Below are positions 1 through 12,686 of a DNA stretch of 12,686 nt, piece by piece (position 1 is the first letter of the stretch; each line of letters opens with the position of its first letter). The stretch comes from a virus. The notes below the pieces were generated by a model. That model did no database searches. It had not been told where the DNA came from and was given only the letters and a program-made list of their open reading frames with translations. Where the stretch lies: the UHGV virus genome UHGV-0143361. One strand, 5' to 3'. The translations under genes and the position numbers were made by a program.

Positions 1-53
1 CCGGGGTCCGGCAGAATGTAGGTTGCGCTGGTCTGCGCCTGACGAATTTTCAT
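1..53 (-). CDS. Partial CDS, 5' end of the next phage head-morphogenesis gene (runs off the window)
   Basis: ATG at 51-53 on the minus strand overlaps the connector stop (ATGA coupling); frame reads MKIRQAQTSATYILPDP and stays open to the window edge. Function is inferred only from HK97-like gene order. Confidence 0.3.
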   Translation of the reverse strand, partial: MKIRQAQTSATYILPDP

Positions 54-373
54 AGTGGTATAAGGCGATAAGGAACAACCAACCAGTTAAAACTCATTGG
101 CAACTCCATTTTCTCAACGTCTGTAACCGTTGAGCGGTTTTCGTAGAAATGGCTGACAAGTAGCAGAAGCGCCAGCTTCACATCATCAGATATCACAAGC
201 CCATCAGGATCATCCGCAGGCCTGTCATCTGCGGTTGCATACAACTTACGGTTAAGGAAGTTTTCCGTACGACTCTGAGCGGCCTTACCAAGCAGTTCAA
301 GCAACTCATCTTCATCAGAGAAATCATCATCCAGACGGAGCTGAAGCTTAATCTCTTCCATTTTTAACAGCAT
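50..373 (-). CDS. Head-tail connector / DNA-packaging protein (HK97 gp6-like)
   Basis: ORF 50..418 trimmed to the ATG at 371-373, which has an AGGAGG Shine-Dalgarno 4 nt upstream. Product starts MLLKMEEIKLQLRLDDDFSDEDELLELL, acidic and about 108 aa, placed right after the major capsid gene as in HK97-type heads. Confidence 0.75.
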   Translation of the reverse strand: MLLKMEEIKLQLRLDDDFSDEDELLELLGKAAQSRTENFLNRKLYATADDRPADDPDGLVISDDVKLALLLLVSHFYENRSTVTDVEKMELPMSFNWLVVPYRLIPL

Positions 374-383
374 AAAACCTCCT

Positions 384-425
384 GTGCCCGCCAGAACGCG
401 GGCACAAAAAAACCGCATTACGCGG
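384..425 (-). promoter_or_regulatory. Structured intergenic region between capsid and connector genes: weak hairpin plus U7, then a perfect 8-bp hairpin
   Basis: Plus-strand GTGCCCGC-cagaac-GCGGGCAC at 384-405 is a perfect 8-bp stem with a 6-nt loop. On the minus-strand RNA a 4-bp CCGC/GCGG hairpin (413-425) is followed by seven U (406-412), then the strong hairpin, then the SD. Likely attenuator or mRNA-processing site after the highly expressed capsid gene. Confidence 0.4.
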
Positions 426-451
426 CGTGCTGTATTACGTAAAAAGACTAA

Positions 452-1681
452 TCAACCACCAACGCTACCTTTCCCCACCAGCGCTTTAATGGCAGAGGTG
501 TCTTCCAGGATACAGTCAAAACGATGGAAGGCCAGAAAACCGGTCTGATCATATTCCGCGTAACGCTCAACCAGACGTTTAAGAATCATGTATCGCACAC
601 GACGGATAATGAAGCGATCAAAGTCACCACAGAACATGAATTTTTTACCCGCCCCGATATCATCAATTTCCTGATCAATGACATACGGTACATTCAACAC
701 TGAAGCAGGTGCCACACCAACAATATCCGGCAACCATAAAGGGCGTCCCTGACCGTCTTCCATCTCACTGATCAGTTTCAGCGTATTATCGTTAAACGCC
801 AGGCGGAATTTCGGCCCGCGACGATATGCAGGATCAATGCTGTGTTTCAGAGCCAGAATTTCCTGCCACTTCACCGTATTTGCCGCGGCAGTCTGTGTTG
901 TGCCGGTCACAGATGCGACCAGCCCTTTGGGTTGTTTAGGCGTACCAGCACCAGTTCCCTGAATCAGATAACGGGCTTCACCACGACCAATACGTTCAGC
1001 AATACGACGGGCAAGATAAGCTTCCATATCGATCGCGCTGTCCTGCAGCAACTCATTAGACACACGAATGATTTTCGATGTCATTTTGAGCGCCCCAAGA
1101 CTTCCCATACCGAAATCGGTGTCTTCTTCACCGGCTTCTTCATTTTCGCCCAGCAGAACACCAACTTCGGAAGTACCATCAGCTGTTGCCCACTCCATAG
1201 TGCGACCGTCAGAAGTGGTAAGAATCTGCGCCACACTGGCGATGCCACCGTAGGACTTCATCTTCTCAACAACTTTCGCCAGGAATGTTTCTGGTACGGT
1301 ATATCCGCCCTTTTCATCCTGAGCTACGCCCTGGGCACGAAGTTCACGCAACGCCTTTCGTTCTTCTGATGTCAGCTCACTGGCACCGTGACGCATCCAC
1401 TTATCAAAAACCTGAGCTCGTTTCTCATCCTGTTGCGGATTGTTTTCCGGATCAAGATTCTGACGCTGCTCTTCCTCATTGCTTTCAATGTACGCCTGAT
1501 CCTGACGACGCAGTTCTTCTTCGCGTGCAATTCGTTCATCAAGCGCTTCCAGTTCGGATTTTGCTTTGTTCCACTCAGTGCGCTGCTCTTCCGTCCATGC
1601 GTTATCACCAATTTTTTCATTCAGGGCACGCATGTCAGTTGCGATAGTATTACGTTTCTGTTTCAGTTCATGCAGTTTCAT
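452..1681 (-). CDS. Major capsid protein, HK97 family, with N-terminal delta (scaffold) domain
   Basis: 409 aa; N-terminal 100+ residues are a charged coiled-coil (EELRRQDQAYIESNEEEQRQ...) followed by a capsid-like body. ATG at 1679-1681 has an AGGAAA SD. Sits directly after the prohead protease with no separate scaffold gene, the HK97 arrangement. Confidence 0.92.
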   Translation of the reverse strand: MKLHELKQKRNTIATDMRALNEKIGDNAWTEEQRTEWNKAKSELEALDERIAREEELRRQDQAYIESNEEEQRQNLDPENNPQQDEKRAQVFDKWMRHGASELTSEERKALRELRAQGVAQDEKGGYTVPETFLAKVVEKMKSYGGIASVAQILTTSDGRTMEWATADGTSEVGVLLGENEEAGEEDTDFGMGSLGALKMTSKIIRVSNELLQDSAIDMEAYLARRIAERIGRGEARYLIQGTGAGTPKQPKGLVASVTGTTQTAAANTVKWQEILALKHSIDPAYRRGPKFRLAFNDNTLKLISEMEDGQGRPLWLPDIVGVAPASVLNVPYVIDQEIDDIGAGKKFMFCGDFDRFIIRRVRYMILKRLVERYAEYDQTGFLAFHRFDCILEDTSAIKALVGKGSVGG

Positions 1682-1691
1682 GATGTTTCCT

Positions 1692-2294
1692 TTACGCGTT
1701 AAGAAGGGTCAGGACGCGCTCACGCGCCATACGTTGATTAATGGCTTTCTGTAGCGCGCCGCTGTTGCGCGCCTCCTGCCATGCTTTCATGGAGCGAACA
1801 GCCGAGTCAGCCTCCTGATAGGCAGGATATGTCACAGGACTGACATCCAGCAGACGGGAAAAGCGGGTTATCTCGCGAATAACAACCCCGTCCTCATCCT
1901 GATACCACTCCTCGCCGTCACGGGCGACACGGAAAGCAAAAGATGACTGGTTAATATCTCCACGTTGCATCGGGGCCAGCACCAGATCACGAATGGTCTG
2001 TGTCTCCGGAGCCTGGATGTCATAGCGCAATCCGCGCTCATCAACTGAAAGATTCAGCGTGCCTGCTGCACTACGCCCAAGAATAAAATTAGGATCGTGG
2101 TTAAACAGTGCGCGTACATCATCACCAAGCACATCGTCAAAAGCGCCGGGCCGGATGATTTCGCGGAATGAACCAAATATCAGCTCAGAACGACAGTCAA
2201 ACACCGATCCATAACCGATAATGTGCGCAGGGTTATCGTCATGCCGCTCAGCACGCACCTCACCGCTGTAACAACGGATTTCACGGTCATTCAT
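1692..2294 (-). CDS. Prohead maturation protease, HK97 family (S78 peptidase)
   Basis: ORF 1692..2351 trimmed to the ATG at 2292-2294 (MNDREIRCY...), which has a GAGGGA SD 7 nt upstream and overlaps the portal stop. Alternative starts exist at 2309 and 2351. Position between portal and capsid, about 200 aa, with protease-like HIIGYGSVFD and SSFAF segments. Confidence 0.85.
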   Translation of the reverse strand: MNDREIRCYSGEVRAERHDDNPAHIIGYGSVFDCRSELIFGSFREIIRPGAFDDVLGDDVRALFNHDPNFILGRSAAGTLNLSVDERGLRYDIQAPETQTIRDLVLAPMQRGDINQSSFAFRVARDGEEWYQDEDGVVIREITRFSRLLDVSPVTYPAYQEADSAVRSMKAWQEARNSGALQKAINQRMARERVLTLLNA

Positions 2295-3513
2295 TGGTTT
2301 TTCCCTCATCTTTTTTTGGGGGCTTAAAATCTCCTGCCGGGTTAGCAGCATTCACGCTTACCAGCATCTCATCCAGCCCTTCAACCGGATTCATATCCTC
2401 GAATGCGCGGGCCTCATTACGGCTCATCCATCCATCGGTAATAGCGAAGTGATAGAATTGCGCGCGCTCCTGCGGAGTTCCGCGTAAAAGCCCCGTCAGA
2501 TTGAACCTGACGTAATACCCGGCGGCTAACTCAGCGCGGGTAAACAAGCGACGGTTAAGCTCCTGCTCCCAGTTCGTCACCCACGGCATCATCGTGTAGC
2601 GGACAAACTGAATCGCCTGCGCAGAAATATTGGAGAAGGTGGCTTTTTCGAGGTCATTAATCATGTGCGCAGGAATATTGAAAATACCGGCAATCATTGA
2701 ACGGTTCAGTTTCATCATGTCAATGATCTGAGCGTCAACTGGCGACACAGTCAGTGCCTTGTAATCCAGATCGGCTGGCAGCAGCATGGTTTTGTTTTCC
2801 TGGCTGCGTAACGCCTGCGATGCCTTCTGCCACTGATCTTTAAGCCAGCCCCAGCTGTCCTTATTGAGTCCGCTTTTAACGGATACTATCCCCGCCGGAC
2901 GGGCATTACCGCTGAAGAAGCTTTCTGTGTATTTCTGACCGCTCATCCCCATGCCTATTGTTTCGGCATGTTGCATAATCGGACTCAGCCCCATCTTCTG
3001 ATTATTACCCAGCGCACGGATGTGGATCATATCGTCGGGGCTGATCGCAAACGCCCCATATTCGTTGTACAAACCGTAGGTGTATCGGCCACCAGTATTC
3101 ATCAGCGTCGTTTCCCACGGCATACAGCAATCCAGGGATATGACTTCACCGCGACGATTACGTTTCACCCAGGTATACCCATTCCCCCAGCCAAGGATGT
3201 GACGTTGCTTCAGTTCGCGCCATTTGTAACTGGTTTGCCAGGTATTGGGCTCATCATGAACCAGATAAAACGCCGGATGATCGCGTGCGGGCTCAACCTT
3301 CCCATTGTGCCTGCGCATAACATGCAACGGCATCTGGGCAAGGCTGGAAGACAGGACATAGATACAGGAATACACCGCAGCCAGTTTCATCGCAGTTTCA
3401 GGACTGACATAAACGTCTGCCCGGAACAGCCCATCAGTATCAACGGCATCCCCGGTTATCGGGGTGGAAGGATTCTCCAGTGATTTACTTCTGAACAGAG
3501 CATCAAGCAGCAC
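2287..3513 (-). CDS. Portal protein, HK97 family
   Basis: 408 aa between terminase large subunit and protease. The start as given in the ORF track is a GTG at 3511-3513; the exact start is uncertain. Confidence 0.9.
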   Translation of the reverse strand: MLLDALFRSKSLENPSTPITGDAVDTDGLFRADVYVSPETAMKLAAVYSCIYVLSSSLAQMPLHVMRRHNGKVEPARDHPAFYLVHDEPNTWQTSYKWRELKQRHILGWGNGYTWVKRNRRGEVISLDCCMPWETTLMNTGGRYTYGLYNEYGAFAISPDDMIHIRALGNNQKMGLSPIMQHAETIGMGMSGQKYTESFFSGNARPAGIVSVKSGLNKDSWGWLKDQWQKASQALRSQENKTMLLPADLDYKALTVSPVDAQIIDMMKLNRSMIAGIFNIPAHMINDLEKATFSNISAQAIQFVRYTMMPWVTNWEQELNRRLFTRAELAAGYYVRFNLTGLLRGTPQERAQFYHFAITDGWMSRNEARAFEDMNPVEGLDEMLVSVNAANPAGDFKPPKKDEGKTNE

Positions 3514-3664
3514 GCGTCCCCCTTCTGGCCATAGCCAGTGCGCCCACCAGCAGTAAACCGCCGGACAGCATCAGAGCCGGAGCCATACCAAACTGCAGGT
3601 AAAACCCGCACGTAAGCAGGCCAAAACCAGCCAACCCGATAACATCAGCAATTAGTGATTTCAT
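3503..3664 (-). CDS. Small hydrophobic ORF (53 aa), putative membrane peptide between terL and portal
   Basis: My own translation: [53 protein letters not shown]. Its ATG (3662-3664) overlaps the terL stop (3661-3663) as ATGA, and its 3' end overlaps the portal GTG start. It is missing from the ORF track only because it is under 60 aa. Confidence 0.3.
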
Positions 3665-5394
3665 AGAATTAAGAGAACATCGTCCGGATCAAGAGATGAG
3701 AGGAAATCGTCGGGTTCTTTGAGCATTGCCCGACCGATCGCCATAATCAGTGCAACCGCACCATCGATTTTGTTTTCCGCCTGCTCCTTGACAGGCTTCA
3801 CCACATCATCGTTACCCGGAATGGTTTTGCCGACCACGTTGCCGATACACCAGGTCATGATGGGATTGCCATCATGATGAAAGCGCCCCGATTCAATTGC
3901 CGCTTCCAGCTCTTTCATCGGGTCGGACATGTTGGTGTAGTTCTGAATGATGGTGATGGGGTTCAGGTCTTCATCAGCAAGGTCATGCGACAGCCCGGTC
4001 GCCCCGAAGGGGTCGATGGGTGACTCACTGACCGGGCTGATTTTGTTCGCCGCTTTGGCCTCCTCGAGGATGTAGCGATAATCCACCTCCGCACCAGCGG
4101 TAACAGTCAGAACGCCCATTTCCACCCATTTCTGAAAGCGTTCGGCTGTCCGGCGATCTTCATTTTTCTCGACGCTGTACACCGTGTCATACGGTACCCA
4201 GAAACGCGGGGCCACACTGTAGTAATGCGTTTTACCGTCAATCTCGCGGGTATAAAGTCGCGCCATGCTGTTCATATCCAGCTTACGCGCCAGGTCAAAG
4301 GCCAGAATGCACGGCTGCCCCTCGAACTGCTCAAGGGTCAGTGATTTATCCTCGCAGCTCTGCCAGCTCACCAGGTTGAAATACGCCGAACGCGCCGACA
4401 CCCAGATATTGAGGTGTTTTGTTTTAAAGACGTTTGCCAGACGGGCGTTATTTTTCGCACGCTGTTGCTGACTTAACAAAAACTCACGGTAAACCGACAC
4501 CCCGATATTCGGGTTGGCTTTTTCCAGCACCTGTGGGTTGGTCCAGTCGTCACCTTCGTCAACGGTATAGATGATCCCGAACAGTTCATCGTTGGGTACC
4601 GAACCGTTGAGCATCTCGATAACTTCCCGCCGCTTGTCGTAGCACGGCCCCTCAATGTTGTACCCGGCGGTGGTGATGGCCCACATCAGTGGCTGACGTC
4701 GCGCCCCCATCCCGGTAAGCATCGTGGTATAAAGCGCATCGGTGGCGTGCTCGTGATATTCATCCACCACCGCACAGTGGGGTGATGATCCATCACCGGG
4801 GTTACCGATCAGCGGTTCAAACCGCGCGCCATCCTCCGGACGGTTCATGTTTGAGGCGTTAACCTCAATCCCGAACGCTTCCGTCAGCATGGGTGTGCGT
4901 TTACACATCAGTCGCGCCGGGCGAAAGACTTCCCACGCCTGTTTCTCTGTCGTGGCACCGGAATACACTTCCGCGCCAAACTCGTTATCACAGGCAAAAC
5001 AATACAGGGCGACACCGGCAGAGATTGCCGATTTGCCGTTCTTACGGGGGATTTCGGTATACACCTCCCGGAAGCGGCGCAGCCGGGTACCTTTATTGAC
5101 CCAGCCAAACGCACAGCAGATCACAAAGAGCTGCCACGGCTCCAGCGTGATGGGCATCCGTTTGAATGCCCACTCACCCTTGGTATGCGGCAACAGCTGA
5201 ATAAATTTGGCGGCCCGTTCAGCCAGGTCCTTGTCGAAGCGGTAACGAAACGACTTACTTTTTTCCGCCATCAGGTCATCAAGATGGCGCTGGCAGGCCT
5301 GAATCACAAACTGGCAGGCCACAATCTTTCCCCGCACGACATCACGGGCATACTGATTGGCAGCATTTACGTTGGGGTAAGATTTCCGGCTCAT
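3661..5394 (-). CDS. terL: Terminase large subunit
   Basis: 577 aa with ATG at 5392-5394, lying between terS and portal. Family recognised from the overall sequence (ATPase-like N-terminal half, nuclease-like C-terminal half). Confidence 0.93.
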
Positions 5395-5407
5395 GATTCG
5401 ATGATTT

Positions 5408-5893
5408 TCAGATTGTCAGAAACGGGTTAGTGGCTTTCTTCTTCCCCGCCAGGCCAATCAGACGCTGGCGGCTGCTGGGGTCGAGTCCGAGCATTGCCCC
5501 CGTGCTGCTCATCTCGGACTCCTGTTCTTTTTTGGCGGTCAGCTCCGGATTTTTGACCATGCCGCCCATTGCACCGGTGATGGTGTTGCCCTGTCTGGCA
5601 ATATTTTTCACGGCACGTCGCCAGAATTCATAGGCCACACACCACCGCTCAAGTACCGCCAGGTCAGTCACGCACAGCAGGCCCTGACCGCAGAGTTCTT
5701 TGGTTGTCAGTTGCCACATGATCGTGGCGAGAGGGAGATCTTCTTCTGCGAACCACTCCGGTGGCTCAACACCTTTGATGGGCGTAAAAACAGGTTCATC
5801 TTTATTCAGGGCTCGCTTGCCGGGGTTTCCGGCCAGCGCCTTGCGCGCCGTTGGCTTGGGGCGACGCCCGGAACGCCCCGCCGTTCCAGCCAT
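5408..5893 (-). CDS. terS: Terminase small subunit, P27 family
   Basis: ORF 5408..5902 trimmed to the ATG at 5891-5893 ([14 protein letters not shown]...), with AGGAG 8 nt upstream; the track's GTG start overlaps that SD. Carries the GNPGKR motif typical of P27-family small terminases and sits immediately upstream of terL. Confidence 0.85.
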
Positions 5894-5902
5894 ATGCGGC
5901 AC

Positions 5903-6018
5903 TCCTGGTTAAATTTCATTTTTCGCGGGTATAAAAAAACGATGGGGCGGGCAGTCCGGAAGACGTCAGGTCACAGGGATTTGACCCGCCCCTCCCCTCA
6001 GACAGTTGAGAATTATTA
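5903..6018 (-). other. Candidate cos / packaging-recognition region with terminator-like structure
   Basis: A 116-bp non-coding gap between HNH and terS. GGGGCGGG (5944-5951) and CCCGCCCC (5986-5993) form an 8-bp GC inverted repeat, with a nested GGTCA/TGACC pair and the palindromes GACGTC and TCCGGA inside, followed on the minus strand by seven U (5933-5939). In HK97-like phages cos lies between the HNH gene and terS. Confidence 0.35.
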
Positions 6019-6369
6019 TCACTTTAACCGTTCACGGGCCGTCTTCGCCTTATGACACGGCCAGCACAGACTCTGCAGATTACTGTCGGCATCAGTGCCG
6101 CCATGCGCTTTAGGAACGATGTGGTCAACGGTTTTCGCCTCACGCACCACACCAGCATGCAGACATGACTGACATAAACCTTTGTCACGCTTCAGGACGC
6201 GCTCGCGGATACCGTCCCACTTCGAACCATAACCGCGCTGATGACGGGACTGGCCCGGCTTGTATTGCTTCCAGCCTTCGCCTTTGTGGCTTTCGCAATA
6301 GCCTGACGGGTCTGTGGTTGTAGAGCGGCAGCCGCGAACACGGCAGGCTTTTGGGATTCGTGGTGGCAT
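6019..6369 (-). CDS. HNH endonuclease, packaging-associated
   Basis: ORF 6019..6432 trimmed to the ATG at 6367-6369 (MPPRIPKACRVRGC...), with an AAGAGGA SD upstream. Has CxxC and CxxH zinc-binding pairs and a DHIVPKAHGG...N...LCWPCH HNH motif. Location directly upstream of cos-terS matches the HK97-type HNH that assists terminase. Confidence 0.85.
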   Translation of the reverse strand: MPPRIPKACRVRGCRSTTTDPSGYCESHKGEGWKQYKPGQSRHQRGYGSKWDGIRERVLKRDKGLCQSCLHAGVVREAKTVDHIVPKAHGGTDADSNLQSLCWPCHKAKTARERLK

Positions 6370-6519
6370 TGCATAATCCTCTTGGATGGTTCGCGTGCGA
6401 TACGTGGCATCCTTCTCAGAATCGAATCGCACTCCACTCCGGTTTTGCCATAAACGATCTTTTATGCTTCGCTGGATGTAGTTGATAGTTGTTGAAACTC
6501 AATGAACAGGAGTTCACAA

Positions 6520-6855
6520 ATGAATAGTTATGAATGGGAATGGCTTTTAAACAAAGATGACACCCTATGCTTTTTCCCCGTAGGCCATTCTGTAGAAGGT
6601 AATTACAAAATTCACTTTGAGTTGAGCGGTAGTTGTAACCTTAGAGTCTCAGATGCTGAATGGCATGGTAAACCTGTACTGCTGTTCGAATACTTCGATG
6701 AAGATGATGACCGCCCTGCAATAATCGAAATATTAGAAACAACTACTACAACTGTGGAGGCGATGATCGGGCATCTGAATAGTATCGATAGTATTTACCA
6801 TGAACCGATTTACAAAGCGGTTTACGAGTGGGCCGTAAAGTTTTTCTATCGATGA
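6520..6855 (+). CDS. Hypothetical protein, about 111 aa, acidic (cargo gene 1)
   Basis: ORF 6502..6855 trimmed to the ATG at 6520, which has AGGAG 7 nt upstream. Plus strand, opposite to the phage operons, and visibly AT-rich. Contains an acidic stretch (EYFDEDDDRP) and a TTTT run. No family recognised by eye. Confidence 0.55.
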   Translation: MNSYEWEWLLNKDDTLCFFPVGHSVEGNYKIHFELSGSCNLRVSDAEWHGKPVLLFEYFDEDDDRPAIIEILETTTTTVEAMIGHLNSIDSIYHEPIYKAVYEWAVKFFYR

Positions 6856-6955
6856 TACTTCGTTATCTTGCTGGCATTCACAATACCTTTACATACTAAT
6901 GACATGCCAGCACAATACTGTCACTTACAACCGTTCGGATTACCTAGAGAAAAGT

Positions 6956-7525
6956 ATGATTCAGGATTTACTGATCGAAGCAATTAGTCACGATAGGATG
7001 CATAAAAAGTTAAATGAACTGAATTGCTACTTCTACAATCGCAAACATGAAACTCAAATACGTGATGAGTTAGTTGTTATTCTCAATCAAATCAGCACAC
7101 TAACTGCTTTAAGTGAGCATCCAAAACTCGGTATCGGCGCTGTTGACATATCACTTTATAACCAGTCGATATTAACGTCTGAACATAATGGCAATGTTGC
7201 AACCATCGAGATCAAACACCATTACCCAAAGGATTTACTTTATCGGCAAGTTCAAGAAGACATCATTTCCGATATTTCAAGAGTAATAGTTTCACCAACT
7301 ACACATTTTATCCATATAATCCAGCAAAGAACTATGATTAATACTCCTTCTTTTGGCCAAGTGAAATTCCTTGAACGTGATGCAAGTGATATCAGCACTT
7401 ATGTGCAATGCCTTGAAGAGCTAAGTTCCTTCCCCAGTATCTTTCATAAAAAAAGTATATGTATTGAGGTACTTGGTGAAATTATGTCGACATATACCTT
7501 TAACGTATATTCATTTGACAACTGA
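6956..7525 (+). CDS. Hypothetical protein, about 189 aa, weak PD-(D/E)xK-like pattern (cargo gene 2)
   Basis: ORF 6899..7525; start is either the ATG at 6899 (no SD) or the ATG at 6956 (A/G-rich leader), so the 5' end is uncertain. Co-directional with cargo gene 1 and AT-rich. The pair GAVDIS ... ATIEIKHH gives a D...E-x-K spacing compatible with a PD-(D/E)xK nuclease core; this is inference only. Confidence 0.5.
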   Translation: MIQDLLIEAISHDRMHKKLNELNCYFYNRKHETQIRDELVVILNQISTLTALSEHPKLGIGAVDISLYNQSILTSEHNGNVATIEIKHHYPKDLLYRQVQEDIISDISRVIVSPTTHFIHIIQQRTMINTPSFGQVKFLERDASDISTYVQCLEELSSFPSIFHKKSICIEVLGEIMSTYTFNVYSFDN

Positions 7526-7546
7526 TTAATTTGACAATTTTATTGC

Positions 7547-7804
7547 TTAATGGTTAGTTCTCTCTGCATCTATTTTACGAATATCAGCTTTATCCCGATT
7601 GCAGTTAGCCAGTGCAGACAACAGACTCACATTCAGCTCCAGGCTGGCACCATAAGTCAGAGGATTTGGTATGAACGGTACAGGTGTTTCAGAAGTCAGA
7701 CTAGTCGGTAATGTTGTAGCCGGAGTGCTCACGTAAACTGTCCGCGTACTTCCGCAACCGCTCAGCAGCGGCAGCAGGCACAAGGCGTGCAGCACAACCA
7801 TCAT
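7547..7804 (-). CDS. Rz1: o-spanin (Rz1-like outer-membrane lipoprotein)
   Basis: ORF 7547..7870 trimmed to the MM start at 7804. Signal peptide with lipobox LLSGC followed by a Pro/Thr-rich mature region (PATTLPTSLTSETPVPFIPNPL). Starts in an alternate frame inside Rz and extends 154 nt past the Rz stop. Confidence 0.7.
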   Translation of the reverse strand: MMVVLHALCLLPLLSGCGSTRTVYVSTPATTLPTSLTSETPVPFIPNPLTYGASLELNVSLLSALANCNRDKADIRKIDAERTNH

Positions 7805-8081
7805 CCGCAACAGCCACTTTGATATCTTTCTGGGTTCTCTGTGACTCCAGTGCGATCTGCTGTTTTGCATGCTGGTTAACCTCTATAACTGTATTGACGA
7901 TTTGCAGTGATTGCAGGACGTTACGGGTAATGGCTGTTGCAGATTCAGCATTTTGTACAGCCTCATCAGCACGTTTCTTTTCGTGCTGATATTTGCTGTA
8001 GTAGTGGTTGGCAGACCAGATGAAAGAACCGATGACAGTAAAGAAGAATGCAGCGATAACCAGCTTATAGCTCAACTTCAT
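7701..8081 (-). CDS. Rz: i-spanin (Rz-like)
   Basis: 126 aa with an N-terminal TM anchor (LVIAAFFFTVIGSFIW) and a charged helical periplasmic domain. Its ATG (8079-8081) overlaps the endolysin 3' end, the usual lysis-cassette position. Confidence 0.8.
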   Translation of the reverse strand: MKLSYKLVIAAFFFTVIGSFIWSANHYYSKYQHEKKRADEAVQNAESATAITRNVLQSLQIVNTVIEVNQHAKQQIALESQRTQKDIKVAVADDGCAARLVPAAAAERLRKYADSLREHSGYNITD

Positions 8082-8541
8082 TTACCACCCCACCAGCCTC
8101 TTTAAATCGGGCAATCAGGTCACCGATTTTATGTTCATACTGACCGTAACCTGCACCAGGTAACGACGCCCAGATATTGCTGCAACGGTCGATAGCCTGA
8201 CGAATATCACCGCGATCAATCATCGGTAAAGCGCCACGCTCTTTAATCTGCTGCAATGCCACTGCGTCCTGGCTTTTGGGGGAGAAGTCTTTCAAACCAA
8301 GCTGTTTACGGTAAGCATCCCACCAGCGTGAAAGAAGCTGATAACGCCCGGCGGCTGTTGATTTGAGTTTTGGGTTTAGCGTGACAAGTTTGCGAGGGTG
8401 ATCGGAGTAATCAGTGAAGAGTTCACCACCGACAATAACGTCATAACCGTGGTTACGTGTCGGTTGTCGTCCGTTATCCGTTCCTTCTGACCAAGCCACC
8501 ATATCAAGGAAAGCTTTACGCTGGGAATTTAGTACCTGCAT
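8065..8541 (-). CDS. R: Endolysin, lambda R-like lytic transglycosylase
   Basis: 158 aa. From memory it is near-identical over most of its length to phage lambda R (RKAFLDM.AWSEGTDNGRQ.TRNHGYDVIVGGELFTDYSDHPRKLVTLNPKLKST.AGRYQLLSRWWDAYRKQLGLKDFSPKSQDAVALQQIKERGALPMIDRGDIRQAIDRCSNIWASLPGAGYGQ). GGAG SD 7 nt upstream of the ATG at 8539-8541. Confidence 0.95.
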   Translation of the reverse strand: MQVLNSQRKAFLDMVAWSEGTDNGRQPTRNHGYDVIVGGELFTDYSDHPRKLVTLNPKLKSTAAGRYQLLSRWWDAYRKQLGLKDFSPKSQDAVALQQIKERGALPMIDRGDIRQAIDRCSNIWASLPGAGYGQYEHKIGDLIARFKEAGGVVNEVEL

Positions 8542-8544
8542 AAA

Positions 8545-8871
8545 TTACTCCTTAGAGCCACCAAATTTGTTACCGATTACTCGCATTGCAGCCCCACGAA
8601 TAGCATCGACACCGATCAACCCAACACCACCACCAATGGCAACAGAAAGCGATTTAGGCCATCCGACATACTCAAGAGCGGATGCAAAAGTCAGCGTCAG
8701 AGCGCCACAGAGTAGAATTTCGAGCGTTTTTCGCTTCCAGCCACCACCACCGCCAAAATAGGCGATGCGCAAACCAGCCATAACGATCGACATAATCACT
8801 GCACCCAGCGGTGTGTCTCCACGCCACCAGCTCTGGACCAAGTCCAGCCAGGTATTTGGGTTATGAGGCAT
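8545..8871 (-). CDS. Holin (three predicted hydrophobic segments)
   Basis: ORF 8545..8967 trimmed to the ATG at 8869-8871 (MPHNPNTWLD...). The track's GTG start lies inside the upstream terminator hairpin and overlaps the methyltransferase gene. Three hydrophobic stretches and a charged C-terminus, placed immediately upstream of the endolysin. Confidence 0.7.
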   Translation of the reverse strand: MPHNPNTWLDLVQSWWRGDTPLGAVIMSIVMAGLRIAYFGGGGGWKRKTLEILLCGALTLTFASALEYVGWPKSLSVAIGGGVGLIGVDAIRGAAMRVIGNKFGGSKE

Positions 8872-8914
8872 TTCGTCATCTCTCACCTCGCGATATTTGC
8901 GGGTGCTGTGTTGG

Positions 8915-8940
8915 AAATAAAAAGGCCACGCAACGTGGCC
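8915..8940 (-). terminator. Intrinsic terminator between the methyltransferase and holin genes (tR'-like position)
   Basis: Perfect 7-bp stem GGCCACG/CGTGGCC with a 3-nt loop (8924-8940), followed on the minus strand by UUUUUAUUU (8915-8923). Lies between the MTase stop (8948) and the holin ATG (8871). Confidence 0.6.
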
Positions 8941-8947
8941 ACCAGAA

Positions 8948-10000
8948 TTATTTCCCCACCAGTTCACTTACCTCTTTCACCGTCTGATTAAACCGCTCTG
9001 ACTCAAGTTCAACACCTAACGCCCGACGTCCCAGCGCCATTGCTGCTTTTATTGTGGAACCGGATCCCATAAAAAAATCAGCAACCAGATCACCTGGTCG
9101 ACTACTGGCATTGATTATTTGCCGGAGCATATCCGCAGGCTTCTCACACGGATGTTTACCCGGGTAGAACTGAACGGGTTTATGCGTCCAGACGTCGGTA
9201 TAAGGCACGGAAACTGATACGGAGAAATAGCGCCGGAGAGTTTTAAACTCATCCAGCAATTCAGAATATTTGCGATTCAGTGAATCATAAGATGCCACCA
9301 GCTGGTGGTGTGGTTGTTCCAGTTGTTGTTCCTGAAACTTCTCTGCCGCTATACGGGAAAACAGTGCCTGTAACTTCCGATAGTCAGCCTCATTCGGCAA
9401 CTGCCACTGACTGGCACCAAACCAGTGGGAAACCATATTTTTCTTACCTGTGGCTTCGGCAATTTGTTTTGCCGTTATACCCAGTTCGGCACGAGCATCC
9501 CTGAAATACGATATCAGCGGTGCCATTATGTGCTGTTTGAGTTCCCTTTCTTTTGCCGCATAGCCGTCACTTTTGCCGCGATATGGCCCCTGGTAATGTT
9601 CAGCAAACAGAACGCGCTCTGTGGCAGGAAAATATGCGCGCAGACTTTCTTTATTACACCCATTCCAACGTCCGGACGGCTTCGCCCAGATGATATTGTT
9701 AAGCACGTTGAAACGTTCACGCATCATGATCTCAATATCAGATGCCAGGCGATGCCCACAGAACAGGTAAAGGCTTCCGGCAGGTTTCAACACCCGCCAG
9801 AACTGGGCCAGACAGTGGTCCAGCCACTTAAGGTAATCTTCGTCCCCTTTCCACTGATTGTCCCAACCGTTGGGTTTCACCTTGAAGTAAGGCGGATCGG
9901 TAACAATCAGGTCAATGGAATCATCAGGCAGGGACTGAATAAAATGCAGGCAATCAGCGTTGATTAAATCAACACTGTTTATTTTTACAGTATTTTTCAT
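8948..10000 (-). CDS. DNA methyltransferase, beta-class amino-MTase (N6-adenine or N4-cytosine), apparently orphan
   Basis: 350 aa. Motif IV DPPY near the N-terminus (IVTDPPYF) and motif I FxGxG near the C-terminus (DFFMGSGST), the permuted order that defines beta-class amino-methyltransferases. No restriction endonuclease gene is adjacent. Confidence 0.9.
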   Translation of the reverse strand: MKNTVKINSVDLINADCLHFIQSLPDDSIDLIVTDPPYFKVKPNGWDNQWKGDEDYLKWLDHCLAQFWRVLKPAGSLYLFCGHRLASDIEIMMRERFNVLNNIIWAKPSGRWNGCNKESLRAYFPATERVLFAEHYQGPYRGKSDGYAAKERELKQHIMAPLISYFRDARAELGITAKQIAEATGKKNMVSHWFGASQWQLPNEADYRKLQALFSRIAAEKFQEQQLEQPHHQLVASYDSLNRKYSELLDEFKTLRRYFSVSVSVPYTDVWTHKPVQFYPGKHPCEKPADMLRQIINASSRPGDLVADFFMGSGSTIKAAMALGRRALGVELESERFNQTVKEVSELVGK

Positions 10001-10150
10001 GGATCAGTAAGCGTAACTCTGGTAGGCTCACTCTGCTTTTGCGCTAAAGCAGTGGGCCGTGGTTCGCTTGTGACCAGTAGGCATGAGCGAATGGCTGGCA
10101 GGTGCTACCAACACCCACCAGCCGCCCATTTTCACAGCAGGAAACCGCCA

Positions 10151-10354
10151 TTACTGGCAGCGTCTGAATTTATTCCCGTACCCGCCGTTATCCTTCGCCA
10201 GACCCGCCAGAACTAACTGAGTCAGTATTAACTGGCACCGGGCTTCGCTTACTCCGGTAGTTCTCGTCATCATGCGTGGCGTTACCCACTTGTCAGCAGG
10301 TAAGAAATGAAGGACTGCGGCGGCGGTTTCTGTCATATCTTGCTGTTTTAGCAT
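10151..10354 (-). CDS. Small putative winged-helix DNA-binding protein (67-75 aa)
   Basis: ORF 10151..10378; I favour the ATG at 10352-10354, which has an AAGGGA SD, over the track start. Size and the AAVLHFL...TGVSEARCQLILTQLVLAGLA pattern resemble small PapI/FaeA-like wHTH regulators. Family assignment is a recollection, not a search result. Confidence 0.45.
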   Translation of the reverse strand: MLKQQDMTETAAAVLHFLPADKWVTPRMMTRTTGVSEARCQLILTQLVLAGLAKDNGGYGNKFRRCQ

Positions 10355-10476
10355 GTCTTTTTCCCTTCTGGTTAACATGACATACCAATAACTCTTGTCT
10401 AAAAAGCCAGCAAGATAAAAAGTCAGTATTCACGACCACCAGCGTGTTTACTGTGCTGCACCAAGTTTACAGGTAC

Positions 10477-10501
10477 AAAAAAACCGCTCAGCGGCGGGTT
10501 T
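10477..10501. promoter_or_regulatory. Weak hairpin flanked by an A7 run and a T-run in a divergent intergenic region
   Basis: AAAAAAA-CCGC-tca-GCGG-CGGGTTT: a 4-bp GC stem with A7 on one side and T3 on the other. On the minus strand it reads hairpin plus U7, so it could be a weak terminator or attenuator. It sits in the 295-bp gap between the wHTH gene and the 339-aa gene. Confidence 0.25.
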
Positions 10502-10673
10502 AAGTTGTGTGGCGAAGTAACCACTCTTAACACAGTAATCTAGAAAATGCGGACCGCGTTAGTGATTTTTATCTGTTTTTCCATTATTTTTTTGCCACAC
10601 AGCTTAAAACGAAAAATAAAGCAGGCGTTGCCAAACCTCACGGTGACAGTTGGCTTAGAATGAGGACATATTT

Positions 10674-11693
10674 TTGGATAAGTTTGATGAGATTCATGTA
10701 GACATTGAATCTGAGCAGCAAGCCTTCGATTTGCTTGAAAGCTATCTTGATGGTTATGGTTTACCTGACAGTTTAAGTTTCAACGGATGGCCAAACCTTA
10801 CCATCAGATTAACCGGTGAAAAATTCAACAGATCGCTAACACCTTCAGTTATGAAGGGATTTGTTGAAATGCAAGCTCAAATCAACAAATCATATGCCCT
10901 TGCCAAGTACGGTGTCCCTGACGTCCGCAAACTGACCAAAGAAGAACTTGATGCCCTAGAAATAGAAGTTACGGTAGAACAGGGTTCTTCAATAGTAGAA
11001 ATCAACATTGATGGCTTTTTAACCAAACTCACACAGGAACTTGTTGGTAAAATGAACGCAACTGAGATCATGTTTACTGTTCTCGGCGCAGCAGTCATCT
11101 GGGGCGGAGTAACAGTATTTAAACGGTTCTTGGACAACCGTAAAGATATTCGCCTTGCAGAAATTGCTAAGGATGGAGAGAAAGAACATCTCCGGACTAT
11201 GCAGATCATGAGCGAGCAAGAAACTAAACGCCTGCGGGTTATTTCAGAAATGATTGCGGAAAAACCACTTCTCGATAACATGGACCGTATGTCGTATGAC
11301 GCTAAAACCCAAATGGTCAAATCCTTTGTGCGTTCAGATAACGCTCAAATTGATGGCGTTACTATTGATTCTGAAATGGCGAAAGAGTTGGTTACGAATG
11401 CTCGTAGACGTTCATCAGAAATGAGGATTGATGGTATTTACCGAATTGAAGAAGTCAATAATACTGACCCAGAGAGTTTCAAAGTTAAGGTCCGACGCGT
11501 AGATACCGACCAACGTCTAACCTGCGTAGTTCAGGATGTTTTCCTTGATGAATCCGGAAACAAAGAAGCATTGCAGCGAGCTGAGTGGGAAAGAAAGCCT
11601 GTACATTTGAGCATTAACGCAAAACACGTCGATGGTGACATTAAGTCAGCAGTAATTCTCTATGTTCGAGATGTGGAACAAAAGCCCGAGTAA
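10674..11693 (+). CDS. Hypothetical single-pass membrane protein, 339 aa (cargo gene, TTG start)
   Basis: Only in-frame start after the upstream stop is TTG at 10674, with GAGGA 7 nt upstream. One clear TM helix (IMFTVLGAAVIWGGVTVF, about residues 133-150) followed by KRFLDNRKDIR, and a charged, helix-rich C-terminal domain of about 190 aa. Plus strand, AT-rich, convergent with Q. No family recognised. Confidence 0.6.
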   Translation: MDKFDEIHVDIESEQQAFDLLESYLDGYGLPDSLSFNGWPNLTIRLTGEKFNRSLTPSVMKGFVEMQAQINKSYALAKYGVPDVRKLTKEELDALEIEVTVEQGSSIVEINIDGFLTKLTQELVGKMNATEIMFTVLGAAVIWGGVTVFKRFLDNRKDIRLAEIAKDGEKEHLRTMQIMSEQETKRLRVISEMIAEKPLLDNMDRMSYDAKTQMVKSFVRSDNAQIDGVTIDSEMAKELVTNARRRSSEMRIDGIYRIEEVNNTDPESFKVKVRRVDTDQRLTCVVQDVFLDESGNKEALQRAEWERKPVHLSINAKHVDGDIKSAVILYVRDVEQKPE

Positions 11694-11699
11694 TCGGGC
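11677..11699 (-). terminator. Intrinsic terminator downstream of Q, possibly bidirectional (shared with the convergent 339-aa gene)
   Basis: 6-bp stem GCCCGA/TCGGGC with a 4-nt loop (11684-11699); the TAA stop of the 339-aa gene lies in the loop. On the minus strand the hairpin is followed by UUUUGUU (11677-11683); on the plus strand it is followed by a U-rich UUCAAUAAUC. Confidence 0.5.
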
Positions 11700-11707
11700 T
11701 TCAATAA

Positions 11708-12085
11708 TCAATCTTTAATTTCGGGGTCCATCTCTAGACTAATTTCCAGCATCGATAGGCAGCCATCAATAAACCCCTCAGCCATCTGTATCTCAATGCG
11801 TATTAGTTTCTCATCCTTTTTACGAGCCTTGGCGAGCTTTCTTTTAGAGATACCGTATAGGTAATGGGCAACAAGAAGCGAATGTTCGTCCGGCCTTTTT
11901 TGCCTTAGACGAGCAAGACAACCTTCAATAATTAATGCATCACTATCTGAACATGCCTGACGTGTTTTGCTTGTATAGGGAAGAAGCCCTTTAAACCCAG
12001 CAGCTATAGGAGAATAGTCTACTCCTGAACTATCACTCGCCGCCCATGCTCCCCAACGATCCAGAACCATTTGAATATCACGCAT
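11708..12085 (-). CDS. Q: Late-gene antiterminator Q (Phage_antitermQ family, QuuQ/QuuD-like)
   Basis: ORF 11708..12100 trimmed to the ATG at 12083-12085 (MRDIQMVLDRWGAWAA...), with a GGAGA SD 7 nt upstream. The N-terminus MRDIQMVL.RWGAWAA...IAAGFKGL matches my recollection of E. coli prophage Q homologues; about 125 aa. Confidence 0.85.
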   Translation of the reverse strand: MRDIQMVLDRWGAWAASDSSGVDYSPIAAGFKGLLPYTSKTRQACSDSDALIIEGCLARLRQKRPDEHSLLVAHYLYGISKRKLAKARKKDEKLIRIEIQMAEGFIDGCLSMLEISLEMDPEIKD

Positions 12086-12102
12086 CAACTTTCTCCACAA
12101 AA

Positions 12103-12230
12103 TCAGGCCAGCACGCCAATTGCCAGCGCACGATCGATAAAACGAAATATCAGCTCCAGCTGAGAGCCATACTTTTCTTCAAATACCACGGTATCCGCAT
12201 GCAGCTCGTCGTGATGCTTTCTGCACAAAG
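12103..12230 (-). pseudogene. 3' fragment of a phage gene upstream of Q, truncated at the junction
   Basis: A minus-strand frame ends ...TVVFEEKYGSQLELIFRFIDRALAIGVLA* at 12103-12105, 17 nt before the Q start, in operon-like spacing with E. coli-like codons (CTG, CGT, GCG). It has no start because the sequence upstream of about 12230 is antisense to rimO. Confidence 0.3.
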
Positions 12231-12231
12231 G

Positions 12232-12636
12232 CAGCACGAAGAGGTCATGCGCTTTGTAGATGAGATGGAGTTCGAGCGTCTTGGCGTATTTACCTACTCA
12301 GCAGAGGAAGATACTCCGGCGGCAGATTTCCCGGATCAGATCCCGGAGGAGGTGAAGGAGGAGCGCCGCGACGAGATCATGGAGCTCCAGCAGGAAATTG
12401 CCTTTGAAAAGTCCGAATCCATGGTAGGACGAGTTCTGGATGTTATGATCGAGGGCAAGGTGGCTGACGAAGCTGCTTATGTGGGAAGAACCTACATGGA
12501 TGCCCCGAATGTAGATGGATATATCTTTGTTAACAGTGGTGAACTCTTTATGTCCGGTGATTTTGTCCGGGTGAAGGTCACTGGTTCCAATGACTATGAT
12601 CTGATCGGGGAGGTATACGATGAATCTGCCGAATAA
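12232..12636 (+). pseudogene. rimO: rimO (ribosomal protein S12 methylthiotransferase) 3' fragment with TRAM domain, 5'-truncated
   Basis: The C-terminal part of ORF 12046..12636 reads ...FERLGVFTYSAEEDTPAADFPDQIPEEVKEERRDEIMELQQEIAFEK...GRTYMDAPNVDGYIFVN...VRVKVTG..YDLIGEV, matching the RimO/MiaB C-terminus. The conserved GFPGET radical-SAM segment expected just upstream is absent in all frames. Codons (GAG, AAG, ATC, CTC) differ from the phage genes. Confidence 0.7.
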
Positions 12637-12686
12637 ACTGACCGTGCTGCGGGTGATCATGATCCCGTTTTTTGTAGCTGCACTTC
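12620..12686 (+). CDS. pgsA: CDP-diacylglycerol--glycerol-3-phosphate 3-phosphatidyltransferase (PgsA), 5' partial, runs off the window
   Basis: ATG at 12620 with a strong GGGGAGG SD 6 nt upstream, overlapping the rimO stop. Reads MNLPNKLTVLRVIMIPFFVAAL, a PgsA-like N-terminus. The rimO-pgsA adjacency is typical of Firmicutes. Confidence 0.6.
   Translation, partial: MNLPNKLTVLRVIMIPFFVAAL

Follow-up and report, generated by a model that had tools for sequence, protein, structure and literature searches.

Many single-gene PD-(D/E)xK systems protect E. coli (PMC13092281), and so do domain-minimal DUF4263 proteins (bioRxiv 10.1101/2025.09.13.674623). Shedu (SduA, DUF4263) is a single-protein PD-(D/E)xK nuclease with a known role in defence, and in KELShedu a DNA-binding WYL-like protein of about 110 amino acids (aa), KELA, is encoded 3 base pairs (bp) upstream of a 361-aa nuclease, KELB. 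Accessory genes may also lie in lambdoid prophages in the orientation opposite to the late operon, as do the lambda bor/iss morons; in phi80 the defence gene tai is located within the Q-dependent late operon and transcribed against it (PMC11364771). Here we describe an AT-rich cassette of two genes, g1 and g2, in a viral genome stretch of 12,686 nucleotides (nt) (UHGV-0143361, the whole of which is referred to below as the window). The prophage that hosts these genes is of the lambdoid/HK97-like type and belongs to E. coli. The cassette is not one system: g1 and g2 are two autonomous single-gene morons stacked in a variable slot. The product of g2 probably has a PD-(D/E)xK nuclease fold, and an anti-phage role is tentatively proposed for it.

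The initial annotation had described two co-oriented plus-strand genes between the terS/HNH and the Rz/Rz1 genes, AT-richer than the backbone and with an acidic first product, and this description was borne out in full. The open reading frame (ORF) of g1 (6520..6855, plus strand) encodes a protein of 111 aa, and that of g2 (6956..7525, plus strand) one of 189 aa. Longer versions of both ORFs begin at 6502 and 6899, respectively, but the starts at 6520 and 6956 are those annotated by RefSeq in E. coli ECONIH1 and agree with the full lengths of the matching PHROGs, 14397 for g1 (111 positions, E 3e-78) and 12494 for g2 (189 positions); the sequence AGGAG is found 9 nt ahead of the g1 ATG. The G+C (GC) content of the cassette (6433-7546) is 37.3% against 51.6% in the backbone, and the GC content at third codon positions is 0.39 in g1 and 0.33 in g2 against 0.44–0.65 in the flanking phage genes. 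The g1 protein has a calculated isoelectric point of 4.56, with 20 D/E residues versus 8 K/R, and the flanking minus-strand HNH, terS, Rz1 and Rz genes were all matched by Pfam and RefSeq. Homologues from other genera are equally AT-rich and differ from the window genes mainly at synonymous sites. With homologues 60–73% identical, the rate of non-synonymous substitution (dN) is about 0.2 while the synonymous rate (dS) is saturated, and their ratio, omega, is 0.055–0.14 where it is computable (0.055 for g1, from the single pair with computable dS). These values mark g1 and g2 as real, selected genes, both of them under purifying selection.

The suggestion that the two genes form a nuclease/partner or toxin/immunity pair, made in the initial annotation, did not survive the survey of their homologues, which co-occur nowhere outside one E. 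coli lineage. In tblastn searches with the g1 and g2 proteins against every fetched locus, g2 was detected without g1 in L002-L009, L024-25 and L029/L032, and g1 without g2 in L010-L023. The non-E. coli loci comprised ten with g2 only, fourteen with g1 only and none with both, and most of these single-gene loci occupy the same terS-proximal slot. The two species-representative genomes that carry g2, those of Yersinia frederiksenii and a Citrobacter sp., have it in the lysis-to-terS slot free of g1, and the Pectobacterium g2 is solitary too, within a degraded non-phage context. Conversely, g1 homologues 68–73% identical to the window protein are found alone beside terS in 13 loci belonging to several prophage types, one more being a Pectobacterium remnant. 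The two genes occur together only in one E. coli lineage with 95–100% identity; among 5426 complete E. coli genomes, g1 is present in 79 and g2 in 80. In E. coli GF60 homology to the window restarts at position 6830, 26 nt ahead of the g1 stop codon; g1 has been deleted and replaced by a different, 151-aa minus-strand gene, while g2 is intact and keeps every catalytic residue. The 100-nt intergenic region (6856..6955, plus strand) travels with g2 in this strain, and its length leaves neither an overlap nor a few-bp coupling between the genes. Since g1 is dispensable, being lost in GF60 and missing from the g1-free g2 loci, an antitoxin or immunity role for it is disfavoured.

The gene that precedes g2 in six Enterobacter prophages, the Enterobacter hormaechei loci L004-L009, is in all six an acidic ORF of 72–75 aa (~4683..4910, plus strand) placed between terS and the g2 homologue, and in a profile comparison it proved unrelated to g1. 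The Yersinia frederiksenii homologue (L002) is flanked in the slot by ORFs of 240 aa (7080..7802, minus strand) and 206 aa (8602..9222, plus strand), in which no Pfam domain was found and which represent further uncharacterised cargo. The other slot neighbours of g2 also lack Pfam domains.

The assignment of g2 relies on its predicted structure and on the conservation of its residues. The AlphaFold2 (AF2) model of the protein, with a mean per-residue confidence (pLDDT) of 84 and a predicted template modelling score (pTM) of 0.85, comprises helix 29-46, strands 50-53, 65-68 and 80-89, helix 91-107 and strand 117-127, an alpha-beta-beta-beta-alpha-beta order that is the core of the PD-(D/E)xK superfamily. 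K30, E32, D64, E85 and K87, and no other columns, are invariant in an alignment of 33 relatives whose identity falls to about 20%. In the model K30 and E32 fall on helix 1, D64 starts strand 2 and E85-x-K87 lies in strand 3, and this putative active site would have the canonical PD-(D/E)xK layout. The spacing D...E-x-K noticed in the initial annotation as compatible with such a nuclease thus proved to be invariant in the family (GAVD...IEIK) and to fit the modelled fold. Sub-threshold matches of distant g2 relatives are almost solely to PD-(D/E)xK families (HSDR_N at 1.4e-4, PDDEXK_4, PDDEXK_9, DpnII-MboI and Tox-REase-7), and two further relatives match REase_II models. One distant relative, P0052, is similar to the SduA/DUF4263 core (E 1e-5) over its residues 22-90, exactly the catalytic region. 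Neither the PDB nor BFVD gave a significant Foldseek match to the g2 model. On balance we consider it probable, from residue conservation and modelling, that g2 has the PD-(D/E)xK nuclease fold. The modelled core begins at about residue 29 of 189 with no N-terminal regulatory domain before it, and g2 appears to be a minimal, stand-alone protein made of the catalytic core and a short C-terminal beta-hairpin region, devoid of a sensor domain. In L033 a PDDEXK_4 protein of 230 aa (795..1487, plus strand) is encoded 64 nt beyond P0052, placing two restriction-fold proteins in tandem; there is no detectable relationship between the two, and the neighbours of two distant g2 relatives are not g2 paralogues.

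Much less can be said of g1. Its AF2 model is poor (pLDDT 55), with six strands followed by two helices, and weak matches to P22_AR_C in 5 of 22 relatives (best E 0.007) are a lead only. It encodes a separate small acidic protein, which we consider to be probably another independent accessory factor and no regulator of g2. An E. coli hypothetical protein of exactly the same size, WP_201133691.1 (336 nt, 111 aa), is listed by DefensePredictor as a predicted novel defence gene with a log-odds of 6.55 (PMC13092281, Table S10), and it may be g1 itself; the RefSeq accessions of g1 and g2 were not found among the rows of the DefensePredictor tables that were covered.

That neither protein could be placed in a known family was confirmed: g1 and g2 gave no match in Pfam, NCBIfam or PADLOC, and searches of PDB sequences, with single sequences as well as profiles, yielded nothing meaningful. 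Both belong only to PHROGs with no function assigned, every source annotates them as hypothetical, and no paper mentioning their RefSeq accessions was found. Both families are narrow. The g2 family forms 26 clusters in a set of 5.8 billion proteins, and its profile, scored against all of 1.84 billion proteins, recovers 42 representatives at E<=1e-3; the g1 family forms 38 clusters, all from Enterobacterales wherever the organism is named. Neither family has been described before, but the kind of element is familiar, namely an AT-rich prophage moron with a small restriction-fold nuclease.

Like Shedu, g2 would be a single-protein PD-(D/E)xK nuclease, but g2 itself has no corresponding Pfam or PADLOC match even at E<=1, the SduA similarity being confined to the distant P0052; the N-terminal sensor domain of Shedu is absent from g2, as in the reported 'type I' minimal forms. 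KELShedu resembles g1/g2 in the size of the partner, whereas g1 is acidic and not conserved together with g2, and the analogy was rejected because the sizes, the spacing and the type of partner differ. The type II enzymes of the EcoRV-like branch (R.SwaI 5tgq, BglI, EcoRV, NlaIV, MspI) share no sequence similarity with g2 and are larger (226–299 aa against 189), g2 lacks a prophage-linked methyltransferase, and Foldseek does not recover the structural likeness. The lambda bor/iss morons have in common with g1/g2 the slot, the AT-richness and the orientation opposite to the late operon; Bor and Iss, however, are lipoproteins with a signal peptide and are unrelated to g1 and g2 in sequence, and the N-termini of the latter, MNSYEWEWLLNKDD and MIQDLLIEAISHDR, contain no hydrophobic signal sequence and no lipobox cysteine; neither protein has a Pfam match. 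Tai of phi80, a non-contiguous-operon defence gene compared by description only, has the same layout as g1/g2, but it acts by blocking the assembly of tails and has a counter-defence partner encoded in the late operon; no partner of this kind is evident for g2.

The slot itself is bordered on the left by an HNH endonuclease gene of the packaging module (6019..6369/6432, minus strand; PF01844, E 4e-15, and RefSeq annotation), beyond which lies the P27-family terS (5408..5902, minus strand) on the packaging side. On the right it is bordered by a LysC/Rz1-like spanin gene (7547..7870, minus strand; PF23793, E 2e-17, and RefSeq), nested in an Rz-like DUF2570 gene (7701..8081, minus strand; Pfam and RefSeq); the spanin gene and g2 are convergent, with a gap of 21 nt. 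The HNH-terS module is present in 1231 of the 5426 E. coli genomes. These prophages remain homologous up to 6369/6370, where the annotated HNH gene has its start codon, and on the right side homology to prophages with other cargo restarts at about 7581-7589. In five sampled HNH-terS prophages the slot holds, one each, a GrlR-family gene, a 74-aa ORF, a DUF2441 gene, iss and a 124-aa plus-strand ORF. The initial description of the site as the bor slot is therefore correct, iss, a bor homologue on the opposite strand, filling exactly this place in an O157:H7 prophage that shares the HNH-terS module, and the contents of the sampled prophages make it a general cargo site. Only about 6% of prophages with this backbone carry g2, which the phage can therefore do without.

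The left junction of the cassette may indicate how such cargo arrives. Solo loci of g1 have the conserved sequence CCCAGTCCGGTTTTGCCAT immediately before the gene, and g2 has it upstream in the Citrobacter, Enterobacter and Pectobacterium loci, three of its four solo loci that were aligned. Read on the other strand, this sequence is the beginning of a Terminase_2-type terS (MAKPDW). In the window it is matched with 2 mismatches at 6433..6451 (minus strand), where 0.01 matches are expected by chance; the reverse complement reads ATG GCA AAA CCG GAG TGG (MAKPEW) and meets a stop after 11 codons. The terS of the prophage itself is of the P27 family, unlike this 5'-end remnant, which marks the left recombination junction as a scar left when the cargo was brought in. 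Cargo enters the slot through recombination at the conserved flanks, and serial events of this kind would leave two unrelated genes in tandem. The tandem placement of g1 and g2 is explicable by such serial recombination, marked by the terS scar. A second, degenerate terS-start remnant ahead of g2, suggested by one alignment, was too diverged to be claimed.

Signals of expression in the cassette are few. The intergenic region contains an imperfect hairpin (inverted repeat 6864-6877 / 6904-6917) whose fold is not significant (z -1.64), together with a weak promoter-like site at 6888-6916 that scores 9/12. Promoter and terminator scans of the region gave no more sites than shuffled sequence, and the Rfam scan of 6300-7700 returned nothing.

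We tentatively read the locus as two stacked single-gene morons in which g2 is a stand-alone prophage PD-(D/E)xK nuclease with an anti-phage role and g1 is a separate gene; taken as a whole, this reading appears to us to have a little less than an even chance of being right. Under it g2 would be expressed from the prophage and would cut the incoming DNA of superinfecting phages, acting as a one-gene defence or exclusion mechanism. Self might be distinguished from non-self by phage-specific DNA modification (type IV-like), by DNA ends or structures (Shedu-like), or by infection-dependent activation; as no methylase is linked to g2 in the prophage, self-DNA would have to be spared in another manner. 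This three-step scheme is built by analogy with the domain-minimal Shedu proteins and with the single-gene PD-(D/E)xK defences validated in E. coli (PMC13092281). A KwaB-like gene that GF60 carries in the next opposite-strand slot of this prophage family provides supporting context. Several points weigh against the proposal. A solitary nuclease with neither sensor domain nor methylase has no evident mechanism of self/non-self discrimination; with promoter evidence weak in the window, orientation and composition are the only grounds for assuming that the lysogen expresses it; g2 itself is matched by no PADLOC, Pfam or NCBIfam model; and neither gene was found in 50,697 sequenced phage records by DNA or protein searches. 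A broader version, which we regard as rather improbable, would have g2 found an undescribed family of sensor-less, methylase-less mini-nucleases (the 42 or so representatives mentioned above) that protect lysogens by recognising features intrinsic to the DNA of incoming phages (modified bases, free ends or replication structures, for example), with g1 as a second independent new defence or anti-defence protein and the terS 5' end as a recombination 'landing pad' where such genes are stacked.

Two alternatives would give g2 a partner. If g1 and g2 formed a two-component module, the nuclease g2 would serve as effector or toxin, with g1 as its acidic inhibitor, immunity protein or sensor; the genes are indeed adjacent, co-oriented and co-inherited in 79 E. 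coli genomes, a small acidic protein beside a nuclease fits inhibitor/nuclease pairs, and KELShedu provides an E. coli precedent in which a protein of about 110 aa accompanies a PD-(D/E)xK nuclease. We nevertheless hold this module to be highly unlikely, given that the genes never meet in the non-E. coli loci, that g2 persists intact in GF60 after the loss of g1, that its neighbours in solo loci are unrelated to g1, that the gap is 100 nt rather than the 3 bp of KELAB, and that g2 lacks the N-terminal KELA-binding domain of KELB. The nuclease-like character and the moron slot of the initial reading stand, and its two-gene system does not. The other potential partner is a methyltransferase, which would make g2 a type II restriction-modification endonuclease. 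The best structural matches of g2 are type II enzymes, and within the late operon, 1.4 kb from g2 and flanked by Q and the holin gene, lies a 350-aa N6_N4 DNA methyltransferase (8948..10000, minus strand; PF01555, E 5e-42) without a partner endonuclease; such a methylase is present in the Citrobacter locus L003 also. However, this gene is missing from the Q-holin slot of GF60 (it is also truncated in O157:H7 FRIK2069), and there the prophage Dam-like gene, the second candidate, is frameshifted while g2 is intact. No methylase lies within 5 kb of g2 in the six Enterobacter loci, and neither the Pectobacterium loci nor the Yersinia locus has a Pfam-annotated one beside it. Being located in the late operon on the other strand, the window methylase would not be co-expressed with a nuclease produced in the lysogen. 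The GF60 and Enterobacter loci in particular make a classical system with a prophage-linked methylase extremely unlikely.

The remaining alternatives leave g2 alone and give it another task. If it were a free-standing homing endonuclease, g2 would be a selfish element: it would cleave phage genomes lacking g2 close to where terS starts, and repair would then copy it in together with its flanks. Its predicted nuclease fold, its consistent position beside the terS start in unrelated phage backbones, the foreign terS 5' remnant at the junction and its patchy presence in the slot would all agree with this. But g1, which is no nuclease by any test, and other cargo share the junction and the placement, so that ordinary recombination at conserved flanks suffices to explain them; moreover, g2 is also found in degraded non-phage contexts and in none of the 50,697 phage records, that is, in no phage known as actively propagating. 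We therefore regard homing as improbable. An alternative that we consider unlikely, but to which we attach more weight, is that g2 is not a defence gene and either serves the phage, in the degradation of host or competitor DNA after induction, in recombination or in repair, or encodes a catalytically diverged DNA- or RNA-binding protein of lysogenic conversion. No defence model matches g2, its defensive role is argued by analogy, and the cargo of the slot includes the non-defence genes iss/bor. On the other hand, the full catalytic constellation is invariant and under strong purifying selection, a gene carried by such a small fraction of these prophages is hardly needed by the phage, its orientation is opposite to that of the late operon, as is that of g1, and the prophage already encodes RusA and HNH according to the RefSeq annotation.

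The window comes from an E. coli prophage and over 3739-12258 shares 99.4% identity with one in strain ECONIH1. The head-module end (1..3738, with capsid, protease and portal genes) is unmatched in that prophage save for 160 bases at 81%, so the window is mosaic relative to its best-matching genome. Synteny stops at 12258, within a DUF968 gene, and the last 428 bases (12259..12686) code for the C-terminal portion of a RimO-like methylthiotransferase (TIGR01125, E 8e-40; ORF 12046..12636); with the synteny break and the RimO-like coding beyond it, this end has the appearance of a chimeric assembly or an artificial join. The holin ORF (8545..8967, minus strand) gives 140 aa from a GTG start, the RefSeq annotation of ECONIH1 having a lambda-family holin of 108 aa (327 nt), and the two lengths may reflect alternative starts. 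Another AT-rich (42% GC) gene on the opposite strand, encoding 339 aa (10674..11693, plus strand), lies between the Q antiterminator and the methylase/holin genes and belongs to PHROG 6191, to which no function is assigned. Its RefSeq protein, WP_000357056.1, is listed in PMC13092281 (Table S10) as a novel defence gene predicted by DefensePredictor with a mean log-odds of 6.55. In GF60 the corresponding slot is filled by a two-gene KwaB-like cassette instead.

At present g1 and g2 may be considered an ordinary pair of uncharacterised morons, with the role proposed by analogy for g2 being plausible. For genome scans the locus carries a caution, since adjacency in a prophage hotspot is no proof of a system: here unrelated cargo was stacked through recombination at a conserved flank. 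If g2 does act against phages, it would be among the smallest stand-alone nuclease defences known, with neither a sensor domain nor a prophage-linked methylase, and it would offer a simple model for how a bare PD-(D/E)xK core separates phage DNA from that of the host.

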